In this document: positions 1-7,622 of the stretch, in pieces
How positions within the stretch are numbered: position 1 is the first letter of the stretch
How the letters are laid out: each line of letters begins with the position of its first letter
Source: a virus
Lineage: Duplodnaviria > Heunggongvirae > Uroviricota > Caudoviricetes
Reading direction: 5' to 3' (one strand)
Virus record (IMG/VR): IMGVR_UViG_2690316142_000009
Length of the DNA stretch: 7,622 bases
Made by a program: the position numbers and the translations under genes
Notes under the pieces: generated by a model
Database searches by the model: none
What the model was told of the DNA's origin: nothing
What the model saw: only the letters and a program-made list of their open reading frames with translations

Positions 1-34
1 AGGAAGGAGTGTCCGTTAAACTCAGGCTACCTCA
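1..34 (-). mobile_element. Terminal inverted repeat (orfA-proximal end) of a second IS3-family copy whose body lies upstream of the window
   Basis: Bases 1-34 (AGGAAGGAGTGTCCGTTAAACTCAGGCTACCTCA) are identical 34/34 to 5645-5678, the orfA-proximal end of the complete IS at 4425-5678. Identity stops at 35 (GGTTATTCGC versus AAAACACGAT at 5679). Same orientation as the complete copy. Confidence 0.6.
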
Positions 35-711
35 GGTTATTCGCTTCTGGGCATGGGCGGATCAACAAATGATAGACGGTAATGCAGATTGTAACGCTCG
101 CGGCGTTACAAAAAGTGCAATAGATCGCATCACTTTTATGTCTGGTTTTGCTGATGCGTTAATTCAGGTTGGATGGCTGGTCGAAAATGACGGAGGGCTT
201 TCTCTACCTAACTTTGAACGTCATAACGGAAAAAGCTCTAAAAAAAACGGGCGGTTACAAACGAGCGAGTAACAAAAATACGCGAACTGAAACGAAAAGG
301 TAACGCTGCCAGCGTTACACAAACGGATCAAAAAGCGTTACCAGAGGAAGAGGAAGAGGAAGATCTAAATACTGATCTCCCCCTCGCCAAAAACGAGCGT
401 CTAAAAAATTCGAGCCGGAGGCTATTGAGCTGCCCGATTGGTTGCCGGAAACACTCTGGCATGAGTGGGTCCGGTTCAGACAGGCATTGCGAAAACCGAT
501 TCGAACGGAGCAGGGCGCTAACGGGGCGATACGGGAACTGGAAAAATTCCGTCAGCAGGGTTTTACACCTGAGCAGGTGATTCGACACAGCATCGCCAAT
601 GAATACCAGGGCCTGTTCGCGCCGAAAGGTGTTCGGCCTGAGACGTTGCTCCGACAGGTTAACACCGTCTCGTTGCCGGACAGTGCGATCCCGCCAGGCT
701 TCAGGGGGTAA
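35..711 (+). pseudogene. Remnant of a phage replication-initiator / replisome-organizer gene, 5' end removed by the IS and reading frame broken twice
   Basis: Three consecutive protein-like open stretches in different frames: frame 0 (35-272, ...FWAWADQQMIDGNADCNARGV...), frame 2 (open 242-577, KIRELKRKGNAASVTQTDQKALPEEEEEED) and frame 1 (open 376-711, ...KKFEPEAIELPDWLPETLWHEWVRFRQALRKPIRTEQG...). No ATG/GTG with an SD begins the frame-1 segment. Lies directly upstream of the DnaC-like gene, as initiator genes do in lambdoid phages. Family identity not verified. Confidence 0.45.
344..361 (+). repeat. (GAGGAA)x3 hexanucleotide repeat, encoding an acidic EEEEEE run in frame 2
   Basis: Direct reading: gaggaagaggaagaggaa at 344-361. 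Confidence 0.5.
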
Positions 712-717
712 CGGACC

Positions 718-1464
718 ATGAAAAATATTGCGACAGGCGGCGTTCTGGAACGCATCCGCCGACTGACCCCGCCACATGTAACCGCCCCATTCAGAACGGT
801 AGCGGAGTGGCGCGAGTGGCAACTTGCTGAAGGCCAGAAACGTAGCGAGGAGATCAACCGCCTGAATCGCCAGTTGCGGGTGGAAAAAATTCTGAATCGC
901 TCAGGCATCCAGCCGTTGCACCGTAAATGCTCGTTTGCGAATTACCAGGTGCAGAACGACGGCCAGCGATACGCGTTAAGCCAGGCGAAATCCATCGCCG
1001 ATGAACTGATGACCGGGTGTACAAATTTTGCGTTCAGCGGAAAACCTGGTACCGGGAAGAATCACTTAGCGGCAGCTATCGGGAATCGCCTGCTGAAAGA
1101 CGGTCAGACAGTGATTGTGGTTACCGTGGCTGATGTTATGAGCGCCCTGCACGCCAGCTATGACGACGGGCAGTCAGGCGAAAAATTTTTGCGGGAGCTG
1201 TGCGAAGTGGATCTGCTGGTTCTTGATGAAATTGGCATTCAGCGCGAGACGAAAAACGAGCAGGTGGTGCTGCACCAGATTGTTGATCGCCGGACAGCGT
1301 CGATGCGCAGCGTGGGGATGCTGACAAACCTGAACTATGAGGTGATGAAAACATTGCTCGGCGAGCGGGTGATGGATCGCATGGTCATGAACGGCGGGCG
1401 CTGGGTGAATTTTAACTGGGAGAGCTGGCGTCCGAATGTTAGCCATTCGAGGGTTGTTAAGTAG
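718..1464 (+). CDS. DnaC-like AAA+ helicase loader (functional analogue of lambda P; compare Rac YdaV, also 248 aa)
   Basis: 248-aa ORF. Walker A-like FSGKPGTGKNHLAAAIG and Walker B-like LLVLDEIG in DnaC-like spacing. G-rich SD-like stretch (GGGGG) 9 nt upstream of the ATG. Positioned after the initiator remnant. Confidence 0.85.
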   Translation: MKNIATGGVLERIRRLTPPHVTAPFRTVAEWREWQLAEGQKRSEEINRLNRQLRVEKILNRSGIQPLHRKCSFANYQVQNDGQRYALSQAKSIADELMTGCTNFAFSGKPGTGKNHLAAAIGNRLLKDGQTVIVVTVADVMSALHASYDDGQSGEKFLRELCEVDLLVLDEIGIQRETKNEQVVLHQIVDRRTASMRSVGMLTNLNYEVMKTLLGERVMDRMVMNGGRWVNFNWESWRPNVSHSRVVK

Positions 1465-1478
1465 TTTCAGGAGGATTT

Positions 1479-1901
1479 ATGGCGAAACCTTTTACTCCCG
1501 AACAGCGGGAAGAACTGAAGACGCGAATTGTGGAACTCGTGCATCAGGACGGTCGGGTCACGATTCGGCAGTTGTCAGATGAAACAGGTATCAGTCGTGC
1601 GTCTGTCGGTCGCTTATGCATAGAACTGGTCGCAAGTGGTGATGTATATAATTCTGGCTACGGCTTATTCCCGTCTGAACAGGCTCGCAAGGACTGGCAA
1701 AGCGCCCGCAAAAAACTCTCGAGAGTAAAGGTGAGGAAACCGGTTGTTGTTGATCCGGACCTTATCTGGTCATTACCTGACGGAGAAATACGCCGCTACG
1801 ACAGGCGCCTGAATATAATCTGTCGCGAGTGCCGGAAGAGCGAAGCTATGCAGCGTGTACTGGCTTTCTATCAGGGTAATTTTCAGGAGGCGATACTGTG
1901 A
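1479..1901 (+). CDS. Hypothetical protein with N-terminal winged-HTH-like segment (140 aa)
   Basis: GGAGG SD 5-6 nt upstream of ATG 1479. HTH-like stretch VTIRQLSDETGISRASVGRLCIELVASGDV. Starts 15 nt after the DnaC-like gene and is immediately followed by the next gene. Function not recognised. Confidence 0.6.
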   Translation: MAKPFTPEQREELKTRIVELVHQDGRVTIRQLSDETGISRASVGRLCIELVASGDVYNSGYGLFPSEQARKDWQSARKKLSRVKVRKPVVVDPDLIWSLPDGEIRRYDRRLNIICRECRKSEAMQRVLAFYQGNFQEAIL

Positions 1902-1958
1902 ATGAAATTAGCTATCAGGCTTCAATTACCGCTGGCATTCGCATCAAAGGAGAGGAGC

Positions 1959-2315
1959 ATGGAAATAAAACCAGAAGATGAGTTAAGCAATATCGTTTTA
2001 TTTCCGGTAAAAGAGGATGACCCTCGTAATCAGGTTAATTTTCTTTATGAGCCATCGGAAAGACCATATTGCCATCACGCCTCTGTACGGGTTGACGAAA
2101 AAGAGCGTCAGGTCCGCTGTAAAATCTGCGGTGCGGTTGTGGAGCCGTTTGACTGGATGCTCTCTGTGGCAAAAAGAGAAACCAGACTGGCAGATGATGT
2201 AAGGCTATTGCGCCAGGAGGAACAGGAAAGGCGGAGAAATATAGAAAAGCTGATACAGATTGAGCGTAACGCGAAAGCGCGGATACGCAGGGCGACAAAA
2301 TCCAGAACTGAATAA
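1959..2315 (+). CDS. Hypothetical Zn-ribbon-like (C-H-H...C-x2-C) protein with basic, coiled-coil-like C-terminus (118 aa from ATG 1959)
   Basis: The ORF track starts at ATG 1902, which directly follows the upstream stop (TGAATG). The in-frame ATG at 1959 has a much stronger SD (AAGGAGAGGAG ending 4 nt upstream), so 1959 is preferred. Cys/His cluster YCHH...RCKICG, then an Arg/Glu/Lys-rich tail. Confidence 0.55.
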   Translation: MEIKPEDELSNIVLFPVKEDDPRNQVNFLYEPSERPYCHHASVRVDEKERQVRCKICGAVVEPFDWMLSVAKRETRLADDVRLLRQEEQERRRNIEKLIQIERNAKARIRRATKSRTE

Positions 2316-2462
2316 TTAAATTTAGCACTGTTAAAAATTTAATCCTTAACCGGAGGGATTTCTGCACCCTCAAATCATCAGGAGACCACCCGAAAGGGCG
2401 GGGAGCAGTCACACATCTGTTTCCGATAGCCCCGTTCTAATGCTACACTCTTTGATATTTTT

Positions 2463-3149
2463 ATGACCCCAATAAACATATTTATGACAGTTGCTGATTT
2501 CAAACGGCCCAAATTGGAGCTCCCAAACGGGGCAAACAAACTACTACTGCACTCTTGCTGTGCTCCATGTTCCGGTGAGGTGATGGAGGCGCTTCAGGCC
2601 TCGGGAATCGACTACACCATCTTTTTCTACAACCCGAACATTCATCCTCAGAAAGAGTATTTAATTCGTAAGGATGAGAATATTCGCTTTGCTGAACAAC
2701 ACGGCGTGCCGTTTATTGATGCTGATTACGACACAGACAACTGGTTTGAACGAGCCAAAGGAATGGAATGGGAGCCCGAACGAGGGATCCGTTGCACCAT
2801 GTGTTTTGACATGCGTTTTGAGCGGACAGCGCTGTACGCCGCTGAAAATGGTTTCAGTGTGATCAGCAGTTCACTGGGCATTTCACGCTGGAAAAATATG
2901 CAGCAGGTTAACGACTGTGGGCGGCGAGCCGTCGCGCATTATCCGGGCATGGTGTACTGGGATTATAACTGGCGCAAGCAGGGCGGCTCGTCCCGTATGA
3001 TTGAAATCAGCAAGCGCGAAAAATTCTATCAGCAGGAATATTGTGGCTGTGTGTATTCTCTGCGCGATACCAATCTACACCGCAAATCTCAGGGACGCCC
3101 TCTTATCAAAATTGGTCAACTCCACTACGGTAAAGAAGAGAAGGAGTGA
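2463..3149 (+). CDS. queH: QueH-like (DUF208) Fe-S protein, putative epoxyqueuosine reductase
   Basis: 228-aa ORF with Cys motifs [24 protein letters not shown] and YCGCVY, which I recall as characteristic of the DUF208/QueH family. No HMM run. Start uncertain: neither ATG 2463 nor in-frame ATG 2485 has an SD. Confidence 0.55.
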
Positions 3150-3204
3150 TTTTATGGGGCACCTTTCTGATTGATTTCATATTGGCGAGGTAAGTAGAAT
3201 GACT

Positions 3205-3218
3205 GCGGGTGCTTGAGG
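3205..3218 (+). promoter_or_regulatory. hok mRNA 5' fold-back-inhibition (fbi) element
   Basis: GCGGGTGCTTGAGG at 3205-3218 is the reverse complement of CCTCAACGCACCCGC at 3590-3604, apart from a 1-nt bulge. This 5'/3' long-range pairing is the known hallmark of hok-family mRNAs. Confidence 0.5.
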
Positions 3219-3261
3219 CTATCTGCTTCAGGCATGAACACCAAAAGGCAGATAGAGAAAA

Positions 3262-3328
3262 GCCCCAGTTAACATTACGCGTCCGGCAAGACGCTTAACA
3301 TTAATCTGAGGCCAATTTCATGCTTTGC
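3262..3328 (-). ncRNA. sok: Sok-like antisense RNA (approximate extent), antisense to the hok leader
   Basis: Minus-strand sigma70-like promoter: -35 TTGCCT (reverse complement of 3358-3363), 17-bp spacer, -10 TAACCT (reverse complement of 3335-3340). Transcription would start near 3328 and run antisense across the upstream ATG/leader region, as expected for Sok. 3' end not defined; no clean terminator found. Confidence 0.3.
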
Positions 3329-3376
3329 ACATGTAGGTTAGCCTCTTACATGCCGAAAGGCAAGGAGAAGCAGGCT

Positions 3377-3532
3377 ATGAAGCAGCAAAAGGCGATGTTA
3401 ATCGCCCTGATCGTCATCTGTTTAACCGTCATAGTGACGGCACTGGTAACGAGGAAAGACCTCTGTGAGGTACGAATCCGAACCGGCCAGACGGAGGTCG
3501 CTGTCTTCGTAGACTACGAATCCAGGAAGTAA
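3377..3532 (+). CDS. hok: Hok/Gef-family type I toxin (51 aa, membrane peptide)
   Basis: MKQQKAMLIALIVICLTVIVTALVTRKDLCEVRIRTGQTEVAVF... is a near-match to the Hok/Gef family as I recall it, closest to HokD/RelF. AAGGAG SD 10 nt upstream of ATG 3377. The 70-aa ORF-track entry (3320-3532) is the same frame extended to an upstream ATG. Confidence 0.9.
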   Translation: MKQQKAMLIALIVICLTVIVTALVTRKDLCEVRIRTGQTEVAVFVDYESRK

Positions 3533-3589
3533 GAGTGACCGGGCGGGGAGCTGATCCCATCCCCGCCCACCTCTGATGTGTCAGGCATC

Positions 3590-3604
3590 CTCAACGCACC
3601 CGCA
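3590..3604 (+). promoter_or_regulatory. hok mRNA 3' fbi partner element
   Basis: Complementary to 3205-3218 (see that feature). A perfect 9-bp GC-rich hairpin (GGGCGGGGA at 3541-3549 pairing with TCCCCGCCC at 3560-3568) lies just upstream of it in the 3' UTR. Confidence 0.5.
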
Positions 3605-3610
3605 CTTAAC

Positions 3611-3659
3611 CCGCCCATCGCTGTGATCTCTCAGCGTTTCGGCGGGTTTTTTGTTGTTT
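3611..3659 (+). terminator. Intrinsic terminator at the 3' end of the hok transcript
   Basis: Composite helix: CCGCC 3611-3615 pairs with GGCGG 3641-3645, and CGCTG 3619-3623 pairs with CAGCG 3632-3636. Followed by T-rich tract TTTTTTGTTGTTT (3647-3659). Confidence 0.6.
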
Positions 3660-3672
3660 ATTTCCGGTGAAT

Positions 3673-3700
3673 TTGATTCGCGCACCTTCGCAGATAGAAT
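3673..3700 (+). promoter_or_regulatory. Candidate sigma70 promoter for the 95-aa ORF
   Basis: -35 TTGATT (3673-3678), 16-bp spacer, -10 TAGAAT (3695-3700), about 80 nt upstream of ATG 3782. Sequence match only. Confidence 0.35.
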
Positions 3701-3781
3701 CGACTCACTTAAGTAGCGCGCAGGGAGAAGAGGGATGGACCCCGAACAGGGGAGAGCTATTTATCTGGAAGGATTCTGAAG

Positions 3782-4069
3782 ATGAAAATCGAAGAATTGC
3801 GTGAAATTTTTAGTGAAAATGGCCTCTATGCTGTGCGCGTTGAGAATGGAGCGATTGTCAGCCATTGCCGCATTAGATGTTTGCAATCTCAACAAAGGAA
3901 GAGCGGTGCTGTGTTATTTTATTTTTGTAATGGACTTCTGACGGACGGTTTTATTTTGCGTGAGGACGAATTTGTCACATCATTACGGGTTTTGAAAGAG
4001 ATTGGTTTTAAGGCTGGTTTTCTGCTTTTGCTGAAGAATAAACTCATCTACAATCTTGAGCAGGATTGA
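3782..4069 (+). CDS. Hypothetical small protein (95 aa), AT-rich moron-like gene upstream of DUF1367 copy 1
   Basis: ATG 3782 with AAGGA about 8 nt upstream. Visibly more AT-rich than its neighbours. Weak N-terminal similarity to the 70-aa ORF at 5773-5985 (EELREIFSENGLYAVRVENGAIV versus KKLFSSKYAVIRRDDLSVIV). Occupies the same position relative to hok as rem does next to hokD in the Qin prophage; identity not verified. Confidence 0.5.
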   Translation: MKIEELREIFSENGLYAVRVENGAIVSHCRIRCLQSQQRKSGAVLFYFCNGLLTDGFILREDEFVTSLRVLKEIGFKAGFLLLLKNKLIYNLEQD

Positions 4070-4107
4070 ACTCCTGCTGTGTAACACCGTGCCACCGGAG
4101 AAAGCCG

Positions 4108-4424
4108 ATGGCACATATACAACTGGTCAAACAAACCTCTTCCGGATTACTTCTCCCGGCGACGCCGGAGAGTTGCGATTTTCTGCATCAAATCAAAACA
4201 GGTGAGTGGATACACGCAGACTTTAAGCGTGTGCGTAACTACGCATTCCACAAGCGTTTTTTCAAACTCCTGCAACTGGGATTCGATTACTGGACTCCGG
4301 TCGGTGGGGCGATCACGCCTCGCGAACGAAAACTGGTGTCCGGTTTCGTTGATTACCTGTGTGAATCAGTAGGCCGGGAACATACGCCAGCTCTGAGCGA
4401 AGCCGCAGAGCAATTGAGGTGTAC
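4108..4424 (+). pseudogene. DUF1367-like nin-region gene, copy 1, truncated after about codon 105 by the IS
   Basis: 4106-4424 is about 97% identical to 6055-6363 (the intact copy at 6057-6656). Identity ends exactly at the IS end (4425, TGAGGT...). The ORF then runs into IS sequence (LRCTGNSGHYHLFFF) to a stop at 4461. GGAG SD upstream of ATG 4108. Confidence 0.7.
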
Positions 4425-4457
4425 TGGCAATAGCGGACACTACCATTTGTTCTTTTT

Positions 4458-5276
4458 TTAAGCAGCCATCTGATGATATTTTTCCCTGAAGGCTGCCGGG
4501 GAGATATTCCCCAGACGAGAGTGACGACGCTGACGATTGTAGAAAATCTCAATGTATTCCCGTATTACTGAGATGGCTTCATCCCGGTTATTAAAACGAT
4601 AGTGGCTCAGGCTCTCATTTTTCAGCGTTCCCCAGAAGCTTTCCATCGGAGCGTTGTCGTAACAGTTACCTTTACGCGACATTGATGTTTTCAGACCAGA
4701 CTGCTCCTGTATGACCCGGTAATCGTATGCGCAGTACTGTGAACCTCGATCAGAGTGGTGGATTAGCCCGGCAGGTGGGCGCTGGCTCCTGAGCGCCATA
4801 AACAGGGCTTTACCTGTCAGCTCTTTTGTCATGCGCTCTCCCATGGCGTAGCCGACAATTTCGCACGTATAAACATCTTTGATGCCAGCGAGGTACAACC
4901 ATCCCTCCTGTGTGGCAACATACGTCAGGTCCGCCACCCAGACCTGATTTGGTGCTGTAGGAGCGAACGTCTGGTTCAGCAGATTTGGCGCAACTGGCAG
5001 ATTGTGGTTCGAGTTCGTAGTCGCTCTGAACTTGCGTTTCTGCTTACAGCGTAGCCTTAGCTCCTTACGAAGACGTGCCAGTCGGTCACGACCAACGATG
5101 ATGCCATTCTCTGCCAGCTCCGTCTGGAGCCGCCGGGTTCCATATGTTTCGCGAGTGCGGATATGTGCCACCTTAATCTCCAGTTTTAGCCGCTCATCAC
5201 TTTGTTTTCTGTCTGAGGGTTCATGCTGTACCCAGTTGTAATAACCGCTCCTGGATACACCAAATACCTGACACAT
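4458..5276 (-). CDS. IS3-family transposase OrfB (DDE catalytic domain), expected to be made as an OrfAB fusion
   Basis: 272-aa ORF. Its frame stays open upstream through the slippery site, and is -1 relative to orfA (manual translation: ...ILKK then SNSVFCTGVAEKYALIEQWRQQFPIEAMCQVFGV..., no stops). Confidence 0.85.
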   Translation of the reverse strand: MCQVFGVSRSGYYNWVQHEPSDRKQSDERLKLEIKVAHIRTRETYGTRRLQTELAENGIIVGRDRLARLRKELRLRCKQKRKFRATTNSNHNLPVAPNLLNQTFAPTAPNQVWVADLTYVATQEGWLYLAGIKDVYTCEIVGYAMGERMTKELTGKALFMALRSQRPPAGLIHHSDRGSQYCAYDYRVIQEQSGLKTSMSRKGNCYDNAPMESFWGTLKNESLSHYRFNNRDEAISVIREYIEIFYNRQRRHSRLGNISPAAFREKYHQMAA

Positions 5277-5311
5277 CGCTTCAATGGGAAATTGTTGTCG
5301 CCATTGTTCGA

Positions 5312-5614
5312 TTAACGCGTATTTTTCAGCGACTCCTGTGCAAAATACGCTGTTGCTTTTTTTAATATATCTCGCTCAAGGCGAGCTTCATTTAACGCCT
5401 TACGCAGTTGCAGAATTTCAGATTCCAGTTCAGCCACCGTGCGGGAACCAGGAGTACCGAGCCCTTTTCTGGCGGCGGTAACCCATTGTCCTAAAGTGCC
5501 TTCAGGAAGAGATAATCGGGAAGCGCCTTCACTGATCGAAAGTTGATTTTCAAGAACCGTTCTGACAGCTTCGGCTTTGAACTCTTTAGAGTAACGTTGG
5601 GTTTTTCTGCTCAT
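5312..5614 (-). CDS. IS3-family transposase OrfA (HTH DNA-binding / leucine-zipper component)
   Basis: 100-aa ORF starting about 30 nt inside the IS end. Heptad-like LxxxxxxL region (ELESEILQLRKALNEARLERDILKKA). Ends 15 codons after the slippery site. Confidence 0.85.
   Translation of the reverse strand: MSRKTQRYSKEFKAEAVRTVLENQLSISEGASRLSLPEGTLGQWVTAARKGLGTPGSRTVAELESEILQLRKALNEARLERDILKKATAYFAQESLKNTR
5357..5363 (-). other. Programmed -1 ribosomal frameshift slippery heptamer (A_AAA_AAA then G) joining orfA to orfB
   Basis: Minus strand reads TTA AAA AAA GCA in the orfA frame. The -1 frame from this point is open into orfB. Classic IS3-family arrangement. Confidence 0.6.
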
Positions 5615-5772
5615 TATTAGCTCCTTCTGATGCCATTCTATTTCAGGAAGGAGTGTCCGTTAAACTCAGGCTACCTCAAAAACACGATCATACACTAAAT
5701 CAGTAAGTTGGCAGCATCACCTTTTGTCTCTATGTTGATATAACCGTTTGTACTTATAAACCTGGAGGCATC

Positions 5773-5985
5773 GTGGAAAAAATAAAGAAACTATTTAGTA
5801 GTAAATACGCAGTCATACGTCGTGATGACCTGTCAGTTATAGTCGAAATGGATTACTTCCCTGAAACCAAAAAATCAATGATGTATCGTAATGGTCGAAA
5901 GGCAATTTTTTTACCGATGAGGGTAAGTGACATTATGGGAAATGATAAACTGCTGGATGAATTGCGAGTCAGAGCATCCTGTTAG
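5773..5985 (+). CDS. Hypothetical small protein (70 aa, GTG start), AT-rich, upstream of DUF1367 copy 2
   Basis: GGAGG (5764-5768) 4 nt upstream of GTG 5773. Begins about 95 nt after the IS end. Weak similarity to the 95-aa ORF at 3782. Function not recognised. Confidence 0.45.
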   Translation: MEKIKKLFSSKYAVIRRDDLSVIVEMDYFPETKKSMMYRNGRKAIFLPMRVSDIMGNDKLLDELRVRASC

Positions 5986-6056
5986 TATTGGCATTAATTC
6001 TGGTATACTACATAACGGGCTGAACACCCATTCTACTGCGCCAGCGGAGAACTACG

Positions 6057-6656
6057 ATGGCGCATATACAACTGATCAAACAAACCTCTTCCGGATTACT
6101 TCTCCCGGCGACGCCGGAGAGTTGCGATTTTCTGCATCAAATCAAAACAGGTGAGTGGATACACGCAGACTTTAAGCGTGTGCGTAACTACGCATTCCAC
6201 AAGCGTTTTTTCAAACTCCTGCAACTGGGATTCGATTACTGGACTCCGGTCGGTGGGGCGATCACGCCTCGCGAACGAGAACTGCTGTCTGGTTTCGTTG
6301 ATTACCTGTGCGAATCAGTAGGTCGGGAACATACGCCAGCTCTGAGCGAAGCCGCAGAGCAATATCTGAATACAGTTGCGACACGCAGAACCCGGGATAC
6401 GGCATTGCTAAAGTCGTTTGAGGCTTTTCGCGAGTGGGTAACCATTCAGGCTGGATTTTACACCGAACATTTTTATCCGGACGGTAGCCGCGGGCGTCGG
6501 GCAAAATCCATCGCTTTTGCGAATATGGACGAAACCGAGTTTCAGCAGGTTTATAAATCTGTTCTGAATGTGCTGTGGAACTGGATTCTGTTCCGTAAAT
6601 TTTCCTCTCCGGAACAAGTCGAAAATGTGGCCGCGCAGCTGCTGGAGTTTGCGTAA
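6057..6656 (+). CDS. DUF1367-like nin-region protein (199 aa), intact copy
   Basis: GGAGA SD 7 nt upstream of the ATG. Stop overlaps the next start (TAATG). N-terminal 105 codons duplicated at 4108-4424. Family label from memory of nin-region proteins (YbcN-like), not verified. Confidence 0.7.
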   Translation: MAHIQLIKQTSSGLLLPATPESCDFLHQIKTGEWIHADFKRVRNYAFHKRFFKLLQLGFDYWTPVGGAITPRERELLSGFVDYLCESVGREHTPALSEAAEQYLNTVATRRTRDTALLKSFEAFREWVTIQAGFYTEHFYPDGSRGRRAKSIAFANMDETEFQQVYKSVLNVLWNWILFRKFSSPEQVENVAAQLLEFA

Positions 6657-6946
6657 TGGTGGATTTACGTAAAGCGGCGCGGGGGCAGATGTGCACCGTC
6701 AGAATTCCTGGCTACTGCAATCACGATCCGGAAACGTCTGTGCTGGCGCATTACCGACTGGCGGGAACGTGCGGAACAGCGATAAAGCCACACGATATGC
6801 AGGCAGCGATTGCCTGTAGCTCGTGCCACGATTTAATCGACGGGCGGGTAAAAACCAGCGATTACACCAAAGAAGAATTACGCCTGATGCATGCAGAAGG
6901 TGTTTTTCGCACACAAGAAATCTGGAGAAAGGAGGGATATTTATGA
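6656..6946 (+). CDS. DUF1364 / YbcO-like Cys-rich nin-region protein (96 aa), putative metal-binding nuclease-like protein
   Basis: 96 aa with Cys clusters (CTVRIPGYC, CSSCHDLIDG). Same length and position as YbcO in DLP12-type nin regions. Translationally coupled on both sides (TAATG upstream, ATGA downstream). Confidence 0.6.
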   Translation: MVDLRKAARGQMCTVRIPGYCNHDPETSVLAHYRLAGTCGTAIKPHDMQAAIACSSCHDLIDGRVKTSDYTKEELRLMHAEGVFRTQEIWRKEGYL

Positions 6947-7497
6947 TTTACCCAACGAATACAGGAAAAAGCGGAGAACACCTTCGTCTCACCACGCTGG
7001 AAAGTGTCTGGATTCAGGGAAAACTACGTATGTGGGGGCGCTGGTCGTATATTGGTGGCGGTAAGACGGGGAATATGTTTAACCTGATGTTGACCTCTAA
7101 AAAGCTGACAAAAACGGCAATTAACGAGGCGCTCCGGAGGATGAAAAAAGCAGGTCTGAACAAGTCTGAACTTGAGGCTTTTTTGCGGGATATGATTAAC
7201 GGTAAGCAAAAGAGCTGGCTGGCGCATTGTACTGATGCAGAGGCGTTATGTATTGATCGGGTCATAAGTGAGGTGCTGGCAGAGCATCCAGGATTGATTA
7301 GCGTCCTTCGGCAACGGTATGAGGGGCGGGGGATGACCAAACGCAAAATGGCTGAACTGCTGAATGATGCACACCCGAAATGGAGTTTAAGAACCTGTGA
7401 AAGACGCATTGAGCATTGGCTAAAGGTGGCAGAATTTATTTTGTACAAACCAATGGTTATGGCTTTTGGTATAGAGAAAAAAGTTATTGCTTTTTGA
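6943..7497 (+). CDS. Putative late-gene antiterminator Q-like protein (184 aa from ATG 6943)
   Basis: Strong SD AAGGAGGG 6 nt upstream of ATG 6943, which overlaps the upstream stop. Last gene before a promoter-like TTGACG and a strong intrinsic terminator, the canonical Q / pR' / tR' arrangement. Assignment rests mainly on position; the ORF-track entry 6823-7497 is an upstream extension overlapping the previous gene. Confidence 0.5.
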   Translation: MIYPTNTGKSGEHLRLTTLESVWIQGKLRMWGRWSYIGGGKTGNMFNLMLTSKKLTKTAINEALRRMKKAGLNKSELEAFLRDMINGKQKSWLAHCTDAEALCIDRVISEVLAEHPGLISVLRQRYEGRGMTKRKMAELLNDAHPKWSLRTCERRIEHWLKVAEFILYKPMVMAFGIEKKVIAF

Positions 7498-7574
7498 CGT
7501 AAAAACTGCTTCAATTCTTGTACGCTTCGCAAAGCTGTACCGCGAGGCGAATAGCAGACATGGACATTTGAAAG

Positions 7575-7599
7575 AGCCCGCTTTATGCGGGTTTTTTTA
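7575..7599 (+). terminator. Rho-independent terminator (candidate tR' of the late-operon leader)
   Basis: Stem AGCCCGC (7575-7581), loop TTTAT, stem GCGGGTT (7587-7593), then a T7 run (7592-7598). About 80 nt downstream of the Q-like stop. Confidence 0.65.
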
Positions 7600-7622
7600 T
7601 ACCTGAAAAACGGCACAGGACG

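Follow-up and report, generated by a model that had tools for sequence, protein, structure and literature searches.

An IS600-bridged junction between two prophage remnants in a Shigella sonnei draft contig is probably a short-read scaffolding chimera

The locus considered here raises the question of how a complete insertion sequence, flanked by bases that do not match and standing between two sets of prophage genes, came to lie where it does. The window, meaning the whole 7,622-bp stretch of DNA that was analysed, is the entire draft contig CXBN01000199.1 of assembly GCA_001251235.1, which represents the Shigella sonnei isolate ShIB2013, a member of the Holt 2012 collection (PMC5447701). A sequence-only reading had interpreted its central junction as either the product of IS-IS recombination joining two prophage nin regions or a composite-transposon-like unit. 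Judged by comparison with other genomes, the join across this IS600 element is probably a short-read scaffolding chimera of two loci ~1.11 Mb apart, designated locus A (left of the junction) and locus B (right of the junction), while the underlying biology is the ordinary, already documented IS-driven decay of two prophages. The features of the window are collected in Table 1, in which L numbers denote loci fetched for comparison.

Table 1. Features of the window and sequences of the junctions discussed in the text.
Feature	Position	Strand	Evidence or remark
orfA-proximal terminal 34 bp of IS600	1–34	-	Cut by contig end; full 1,264-bp copy in complete genomes
3' remnant of YdaU/O-like replication-initiator gene	35–717	+	Interrupted by left IS600
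ydaV, DnaC/IstB-like ATPase	718–1464	+	Pfam IstB_IS21 1e-19; ydaV annotation in L001
DUF977 winged-helix protein	1479–1901	+	Pfam DUF977 1e-33
Hypothetical protein, weak Zn-ribbon match	1959–2315	+	Zn_Ribbon_TF under curated cut-off; gene calls
QueH homologue (epoxyqueuosine reductase family)	2484–3149	+	Pfam QueH 2e-65; L001 annotation
hok/sok type I toxin-antitoxin locus	3207–3532	+	sok 3207–3382, hok CDS 3377–3532
95-aa Rem-family protein	3782–4069	+	PF27490 Rem
DUF1367 gene, 5' 102 codons	4108–4414	+	Broken after ...GCAGAGCAAT; Pfam DUF1367 profile positions 1–102 of 198
IS600 (IS3 family), 1,264 bp	4415–5678	-	orfA 5614–5312, orfB 5276–4458; A-run slippery site near 5357–5365
IS1 left-end stub, IS1 positions 43 to 1	5679–5721	-	49-bp match to annotated IS1 end
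nin/Q region of second prophage remnant	5722–7622	+	100% identity to S. sonnei loci
70-aa ORF	5773–5985	+	In second prophage nin/Q region
Intact DUF1367	6057–6656	+	In second prophage nin/Q region
YbcO/DUF1364	6656–6946	+	In second prophage nin/Q region
DUF1133 Q-like	6943–7497	+	In second prophage nin/Q region
Junction DUF1367'/IS600			GCAGAGCAAT/TGAGGTGTAC
Junction IS600/integrase fragment (complete genomes)			GGCTACCTCA/GTTCGGCCTTTGC
Junction IS600/IS1 stub			GGCTACCTCA/AAAACACGATCA
Junction IS1 interior/IS600 (predicted)			...GGAGCACCTCAAA(A)/TGAGGTGTAC

The complete element in the window shares 99.4–100% identity with annotated IS600 copies, including 99.4% with the L002 copy annotated as “IS3-like element IS600 family transposase” and 99.8–100% with copies in S. 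sonnei genomes. Pfam matches were obtained to HTH_Tnp_1 for orfA (1.5e-20) and to rve for orfB (9e-26), and the A-run on the minus strand in the overlap of these frames is the site of a predicted programmed -1 frameshift, as annotated by RefSeq. The terminal inverted repeats are imperfect and of the form TG...CA (left end TGAGGTGTACTGGCAATAGCGGACAC; reverse complement of the right end TGAGGTAGCCTGAGTTTAACGGACAC). A complete IS3-family element had been recognized from the sequence alone, but with a start at 4425 rather than 4415; as the left flank quoted with it, CAAT, occupies 4411–4414, that start was a 10-base slip. The mismatch of the flanks held up, with AAT on the left, AAA on the right and no 3-bp target-site duplication (TSD) after re-alignment of the ends. 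The same DUF1367-side IS600 in complete genomes is flanked by AAT and GTT, also without a TSD.

At the other end of the cargo, positions 1–34 are 100% identical to 5645–5678 and lie on the same strand. Because the window is a whole contig, this fragment is a real IS end truncated by the end of the contig and not a solo inverted repeat. Complete genomes do have a full IS600 in direct orientation upstream of position 1 (L017–L024), where it is bounded by the TSD GGT and reads GGT-IS600-GGT within the replication-initiator gene, as compared to the intact site GGGAAGGTTATTCG. The remnant of this gene has also been frameshifted by two added A residues and a 10-bp deletion, and shares 99.6% identity with its intact counterpart in E. 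coli FDAARGOS_944 (L001, 5898–6686). The cargo genes had been listed correctly as DnaC/IstB-like, DUF977 winged helix, Zn-ribbon, QueH, hok/sok, Rem and DUF1367; the sok region scores 117 bits with Rfam RF01794, for which the gathering score is 59, and hok is supported by PF01848 and a hokD annotation. As a prophage retained intact at the same chromosomal site (ybhA/mod) in E. coli FDAARGOS_944 is collinear with the cargo at 99.6% identity, the cargo represents resident prophage DNA that was entered by two IS copies.

This origin of the cargo bears on the proposal that IS600, cargo and IS600 form a composite transposon mobilizing QueH, hok/sok and the replication genes as a unit, which we consider highly improbable. 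Two full direct IS600 copies surround the 4.4-kb segment in complete genomes, but the left copy has its own GGT/GGT duplication in the initiator gene and therefore arrived alone, and the outer flanks of the unit, GGT and GTT (...AAGGT and GTTCGG...), form no TSD around the whole. The unit was found at a single mod-proximal site in all complete genomes examined, other contexts being confined to N-containing draft scaffolds. One such draft, L026, has the unit apparently inside the ydaV gene of another prophage, but 37 Ns mark one border of this placement and one N marks the other, and the IS600 there lacks its last 125 bp. Of the composite-transposon-like unit suggested earlier, the IS pair is thus what was found, with neither an outer duplication nor multiple sites.

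Complete S. sonnei genomes show the 4.4-kb segment bracketed by two full, directly oriented IS600 copies (8763–10026 and 14407–15670 in L017), and window positions 1–5678 are 99.9% identical to L017 and L018. In these two loci and four others that were checked (L019, L020, L023 and L024), the right IS600 is followed by GTTCGGCC..., an integrase fragment and then modCBA. Locus A is therein a decayed lambdoid prophage beside modABC whose IS600-bounded segment is inverted with respect to both of its flanks, and at its right breakpoint the 5' half of DUF1367 stands on one side and a 3' integrase fragment on the other. The DUF1367'/IS600 junction is a TSD-less rearrangement breakpoint in every complete S. 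sonnei genome examined, in agreement with the earlier view that simple insertion does not account for the complete copy. An uninterrupted DUF1367 site, GCAGAGCAATATCTG, is present in L001, and the sequence to the right of the IS in the window indeed does not continue the interrupted gene. We also rejected the possibility that IS600 had simply inserted into DUF1367 and that its boundaries had been misplaced, as the re-aligned ends show no duplication and the integrase fragment lies on the right. Since rearrangement of S. sonnei chromosomes is common, this isolate may itself be arranged unusually.

The right part of the window begins with a 43-bp IS1 end that the sequence-only reading had overlooked, and which extends to 49 bp if the six bases shared with the IS600 tip (5673–5678) are counted. 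The IS1 terminal sequence GGTGATGCTGCCAACTTACTGAT... is present, with the window read from 5721 back to 5673 corresponding to IS1 positions 1–49; the window holds this stub only and no IS1 element. The stub matches the annotated IS1A end in L002 at 48 of 49 positions and the locus-B IS1 in L007 at all 49, and its SNP, a C at IS1 position 36, was found only in the IS1 copy at locus B (six complete-genome loci). On account of this restriction of the SNP, we rejected any other IS1 copy, and with it a second false join, as the source of the stub; the restriction also indicates that the IS600/IS1 junction itself is probably real, as is, probably, an isolate-specific insertion of IS600 into the locus-B IS1. 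Positions 5673–7622 are 100% identical to L007–L009, L011 and L013 over 9617–11566, where a complete IS1 precedes them, and in the ten loci displayed for locus B at least 55 bp of IS1 are present in every case and IS600 occupies that point in none. The stretch 5722–7622, identical throughout in S. sonnei, is a mosaic in E. coli, in which no prophage matched it at more than 95% over the full length. The two DUF1367 copies of the window, 96.6% identical over the 5' duplicate (4091–4414 and 6040–6363, the latter in the region of the intact copy), come from separate chromosomal loci in complete genomes. The earlier proposal of IS-IS recombination between two nin regions therefore retains its rearrangement breakpoint and loses its partner, as complete genomes have the integrase fragment and modCBA at that place and the window's nin region is located 1.11 Mb off, behind a complete IS1. 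The nin-nin join in the window, moreover, passes through a collapsed multi-copy IS600 with an N in the public record.

The join could instead be real if, in the ShIB2013 sublineage, recombination took place between two IS600 copies, one inserted in prophage B's IS1 and the other at the DUF1367 breakpoint of prophage A, producing a hybrid IS600 between DUF1367' and the IS1 stub; such a hybrid could, for example, form the new joint of a large tandem duplication or belong to a transposed segment, or earlier inversions could have altered the geometry. We regard this as unlikely. In two genomes with both loci (CBDDMI010000001.1 and JBQRUS010000005.1), B lies upstream of A on the same strand at a distance of ~1.11 Mb, and a real A-to-B join between these direct repeats could then arise only by a tandem duplication or circle of 1.1 Mb or by deletion of 3.7 Mb. 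The probable reality of the IS600/IS1-stub junction, with its locus-B-specific SNP, speaks for such an event, as does the frequency of IS-mediated rearrangement in S. sonnei, in which strain-specific IS insertions occur in 75% of genomes (PMC7373316). Against it, the complete genomes that were compared have the integrase fragment and mod operon on the right without exception, although they belong to sublineages other than that of the window. Neither DUF1367'/IS600, nor IS600/IS1-stub/70-aa ORF, nor IS600/IS1 alone was found in any complete E. coli genome searched, the one 100% match in this junction search consisting of two pieces ~310 bp apart that do not cover the junction. The exact IS600/IS1 junction returned 0 matches in IMG/VR viral contigs and, among 26 fetched loci, occurred only in the record of the window itself.

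Further evidence comes from the public record and from related drafts. In the public record, position 5553 within IS600 is an N, where the window carries the letter A; IS600 alignments from complete genomes have A at the equivalent site in 13 cases and G in 20, and as the site is thus polymorphic between copies, the IS of the contig appears to be a mixed consensus, which counts against a real join. In sister drafts from the same source, this cargo is attached to different sequences and Ns stand at the borders of IS600, and these joins at the same IS are mutually inconsistent: in L026 an N at the position equivalent to 5553 is followed by a ydaV paralogue, and the joins in L022 and L025 are inconsistent as well. 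The 117-aa DUF1367' variant of the window was found in six draft contigs only, and two other drafts that carry it end 45–51 bp into IS600, which also argues against the join. On the other side, the truncated DUF1367 of locus A carries three alleles of the intact locus-B copy, in the window and in two other drafts; if these reflect real gene conversion, loci A and B have interacted. Slightly less probable still is a fusion of both prophage remnants by recombination of IS600 copies 1.11 Mb apart, with an IS-bounded duplication or a transposed segment of megabase size as its outcome. Were this fusion true, the DUF1367 gene conversion would be a trace of contact between the copies, and the join would show that IS600 had rearranged the chromosome of one S. 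sonnei sublineage on a megabase scale, a result of modest interest.

In the Sanger pipeline, repeats longer than the fragment size of 300–500 bp are not resolvable, and the combination of SSPACE and GapFiller is greedy and capable of false joins, which are marked by N (PMC5320598). From its origin and N pattern, we infer that CXBN01 was assembled by this Velvet/SSPACE/GapFiller pipeline. For the preferred explanation, a scaffolding chimera, a further IS600 copy would have inserted in this isolate into the locus-B IS1 at IS1 position 43–49. The assembler would then have seen the left flank of A entering IS600 and the right flank of B leaving IS600, and the scaffolder and gap filler may have bridged A and B via the collapsed consensus of IS600, an element with numerous near-identical copies, with one base (the N at 5553) left unresolved at a site that varies between them. 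The missing TSD and the non-continued DUF1367 would both follow from a real IS-mediated breakpoint on the left and a false join on the right. A complete multi-copy IS with mismatched flanks in a short-read contig is therefore no proof of recombination or of a composite transposon without reads longer than the IS. The underlying features, namely IS600 and IS1 insertions, a TSD-less breakpoint and an inverted, deleted prophage by modABC, are standard for Shigella and are already contained in published complete genomes.

Compared with IS600 of Shigella and EIEC, the element in the window is alike in length, orfA/orfB domains, A-run overlap and TG...CA termini, and shows no difference in itself; the IS600 that entered the initiator gene is bounded by a 3-bp TSD, whereas the complete copy in the window has none, since its flanks derive from different events or different loci. 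With Tn9-type composite transposons (IS1-cat-IS1) the locus shares two direct copies of one IS around a few kb, but differs in having no TSD around the unit, one IS with its own TSD, a single known location and resident prophage cargo. The IS-driven Shigella prophage decay of Hawkey et al. 2020 (PMC7373316) is alike in its multiple IS1/IS600 insertions, TSD-less breakpoints, inverted segment, deletions in lambdoid remnants and isolate-specific IS insertions; that study is not known to give a specific account of locus A, which was reconstructed here via the intact prophage of FDAARGOS_944 at ybhA/mod. Finally, the use of the pipeline for CXBN01 is deduced here, in contrast to the Velvet/SSPACE/GapFiller false joins described by Page et al. 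2016 (PMC5320598), but the two are alike in a repeat longer than the fragment size, a residual N and inconsistent partners in sister assemblies.

The window corresponds to one complete draft contig, CXBN01000199.1 of GCA_001251235.1 (7,622 bp), from Shigella sonnei ShIB2013, a lineage IIIc isolate from the collection of Holt et al. 2012 (PMC5447701); the 34-bp "IS end" at its start is therefore where the contig breaks off within an IS600 copy. Aligned with annotated IS600 copies, the full copy begins at 4415 instead of 4425, a 10-base slip in the sequence-only reading, and with corrected ends its flanks are AAT and AAA, so that a 3-bp target-site duplication (TSD) is still absent. The intact DUF1367 gene reads GCAGAGCAATATCTG, a continuation that was not found to the right of the window's IS600. 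That reading was right about direct IS600 copies and a missing TSD, but not about coordinates, and it overlooked both an IS1 stub and an N.

Features of the window and their positions
Feature	Position	Remark
IS600 end	1-34	identical to 5645-5678, same strand
Initiator remnant		prophage early gene between IS600 ends
ydaV		DnaC/IstB-like
DUF977 protein		winged-helix
Small Zn-ribbon protein
QueH homologue	2484-3149	epoxyqueuosine reductase
hok/sok		Rfam sok, 117 bits
Rem-family ORF		95 aa
DUF1367 gene, truncated (DUF1367')	4108-4414	first 102 codons kept
IS600, full copy	4415-5678	1,264 bp; TGAGGT... termini
IS1 stub	5679-5721	first 43 bp of IS1
70-aa ORF		right of IS1 stub
DUF1367 gene, intact
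YbcO/DUF1364
DUF1133 gene		Q-like

Positions 1-5678 are 99.9% identical to one locus (locus A, a decayed prophage beside modABC) of S. sonnei chromosomes that are complete or nearly so (L017-L024). There, as had been proposed, the cargo lies between two full-length IS600 copies in direct orientation, and the sequence upstream of position 1 is a full copy with a TSD. This left copy entered the initiator gene by simple insertion (GGGAAGGT, IS600, GGTTATTCG; TSD GGT, 3 bp), and the intact site, GGGAAGGTTATTCG, is present in E. coli FDAARGOS_944. The right copy lies between DUF1367' (...CAAT, left) and GTTCGGCC... (right), the latter being the 3' part of an integrase gene; beyond this come ybhA, most of it deleted, and modC, modB and modA. 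Lacking a TSD and bordered by integrase sequence, this copy is indeed not a simple insertion. FDAARGOS_944 carries an intact prophage at the same ybhA/mod site, 99.6% identical across the cargo, in which int and DUF1367 lie on opposite strands. The S. sonnei block running from DUF1391 to DUF1367' is inverted with respect to the sequence on either side, with material lost at both ends; the absent TSD at the right copy is therefore real and reflects IS-mediated inversion and deletion inside one prophage. The IS-mediated rearrangement suggested earlier holds for the DUF1367' breakpoint, but probably not for the fusion of two nin regions.

The proposed cargo content of prophage early and nin genes was confirmed, including the sok match. 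Compared with the intact FDAARGOS_944 gene, the initiator remnant has an A-run (241-248) longer by two A and a 10-bp deletion (about 404), both also found in complete S. sonnei genomes, which indicates that the pseudogene decayed further after IS600 insertion. The QueH homologue lies within a lambdoid prophage nin region, and a QueH gene is annotated at the same position in many E. coli prophages. At 4199, 4234 and 4281, DUF1367' carries C, C and A, the alleles of the intact DUF1367 copy; every complete S. sonnei genome has T at all three positions, one draft (L005) matches the window and another (L006) has C, C and T. Two of these differences change the encoded residue. The alleles represent gene conversion over a short tract between the 96%-identical paralogues, or else a collapse of de Bruijn bubbles during draft assembly.

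Positions 5673-7622 are 100% identical to a second prophage remnant (locus B) of complete S. sonnei genomes (L007-L009, L011, L013), in which a complete IS1 stands ahead of the 70-aa ORF; the IS1 end lies 52 bp upstream of this ORF in those genomes and in the window alike. The stub has a C at IS1 position 36, seen among 24 IS1 left ends compared only in the locus-B IS1 (six genomes). The stub therefore derives from that IS1, and its link to the IS600 tip must have been present in the reads. The simplest reading of these sequences is an isolate-specific IS600 insertion into the locus-B IS1, which is probably real and agrees with the strain-specific IS insertions reported in 75% of S. sonnei genomes and with IS600 activity (PMC7373316). 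Its other junction would lie between two collapsed repeats and would probably be lost in short-read assembly. The hexamer at the IS600 terminus, TGAGGT, is the same as IS1 positions 44-49; the IS600/IS1 junction is thus ambiguous across 6 bp (ACCTCA, 5673-5678), and IS600 adjoins a copy of its own tip. IS3-family elements are known to insert beside end-like sequences. Another IS600, with TSD TAA, occupies the opposite IS1 tip in L016 (CP064376.1, 4120-5383).

The complete locus-B IS1 (L008 8870-9690; window 5722 onward) has no 9-bp target duplication (left GGTTTTTTT, right TTTTGTCTC), and an E. coli relative without IS1 (L003) differs on the left side of the site; this IS1 may thus also mark a deletion or mosaic boundary. 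The contig ends at 7622, ~65 bp short of the tRNA-Ile/Arg/Thr/Gly cluster of related prophages (L001 11713 onward), and S. sonnei has another IS600 558 bp beyond the equivalent point (L008 12124); a further repeat that prophages have in common is the probable cause of the break.

The public record and the window differ at one base only, 5553 inside IS600, which is N in the public record. IS600 is a multi-copy element: among 37 alignments to it in eleven 20-kb loci, 13 have A and 20 have G at the equivalent base, and an N exactly at this copy-variable site indicates that the IS600 of the contig merges several copies into one consensus. In two genomes with both loci, B lies upstream of A on the same strand, ~1.11 Mb away. 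In this orientation, a junction from A's end into B's start would take a tandem duplication or circle of 1.1 Mb, or a deletion of 3.7 Mb. A real isolate-specific rearrangement is unlikely. Neither the DUF1367'-IS600 nor the IS600-IS1-stub junction was found in any complete E. coli genome, and the latter was also absent from viral contigs and other compared loci.

Sister drafts from the same source disagree at the same element. In L026, the base equivalent to 5553 is also N, the partner after it is a different one (a ydaV paralogue), and the other IS border holds 37 Ns. An N directly adjoins the IS600 start in L022, and L025 contains three single Ns. The two further drafts that share the window's DUF1367' variant end 45-51 bp into IS600. 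Repeats beyond the 300-500 bp fragment size are unresolvable in the Sanger pipeline, whose SSPACE and GapFiller steps are greedy, can make false joins and mark joins by N (PMC5320598); we infer that CXBN01 was built by this pipeline. The N at a copy-variable site, the inconsistent sister drafts and the distance between loci argue against recombination joining two nin regions, and the fusion is most likely a scaffolding chimera.

In other drafts from the same collection (L026 8736-15922; L022 8762; L025 8928, 14123, 17546), the IS600-cargo-IS600 loop is placed within a ydaV gene of a Rac-like prophage or has parts repeated, and Ns stand at the joins. Such N-marked placements could be mistaken for composite-transposon insertions. 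A composite-transposon-like unit, the other earlier proposal for IS600-cargo-IS600, failed its tests and is highly improbable. Everything observed here falls within what is known of IS biology or of assembly artefacts.
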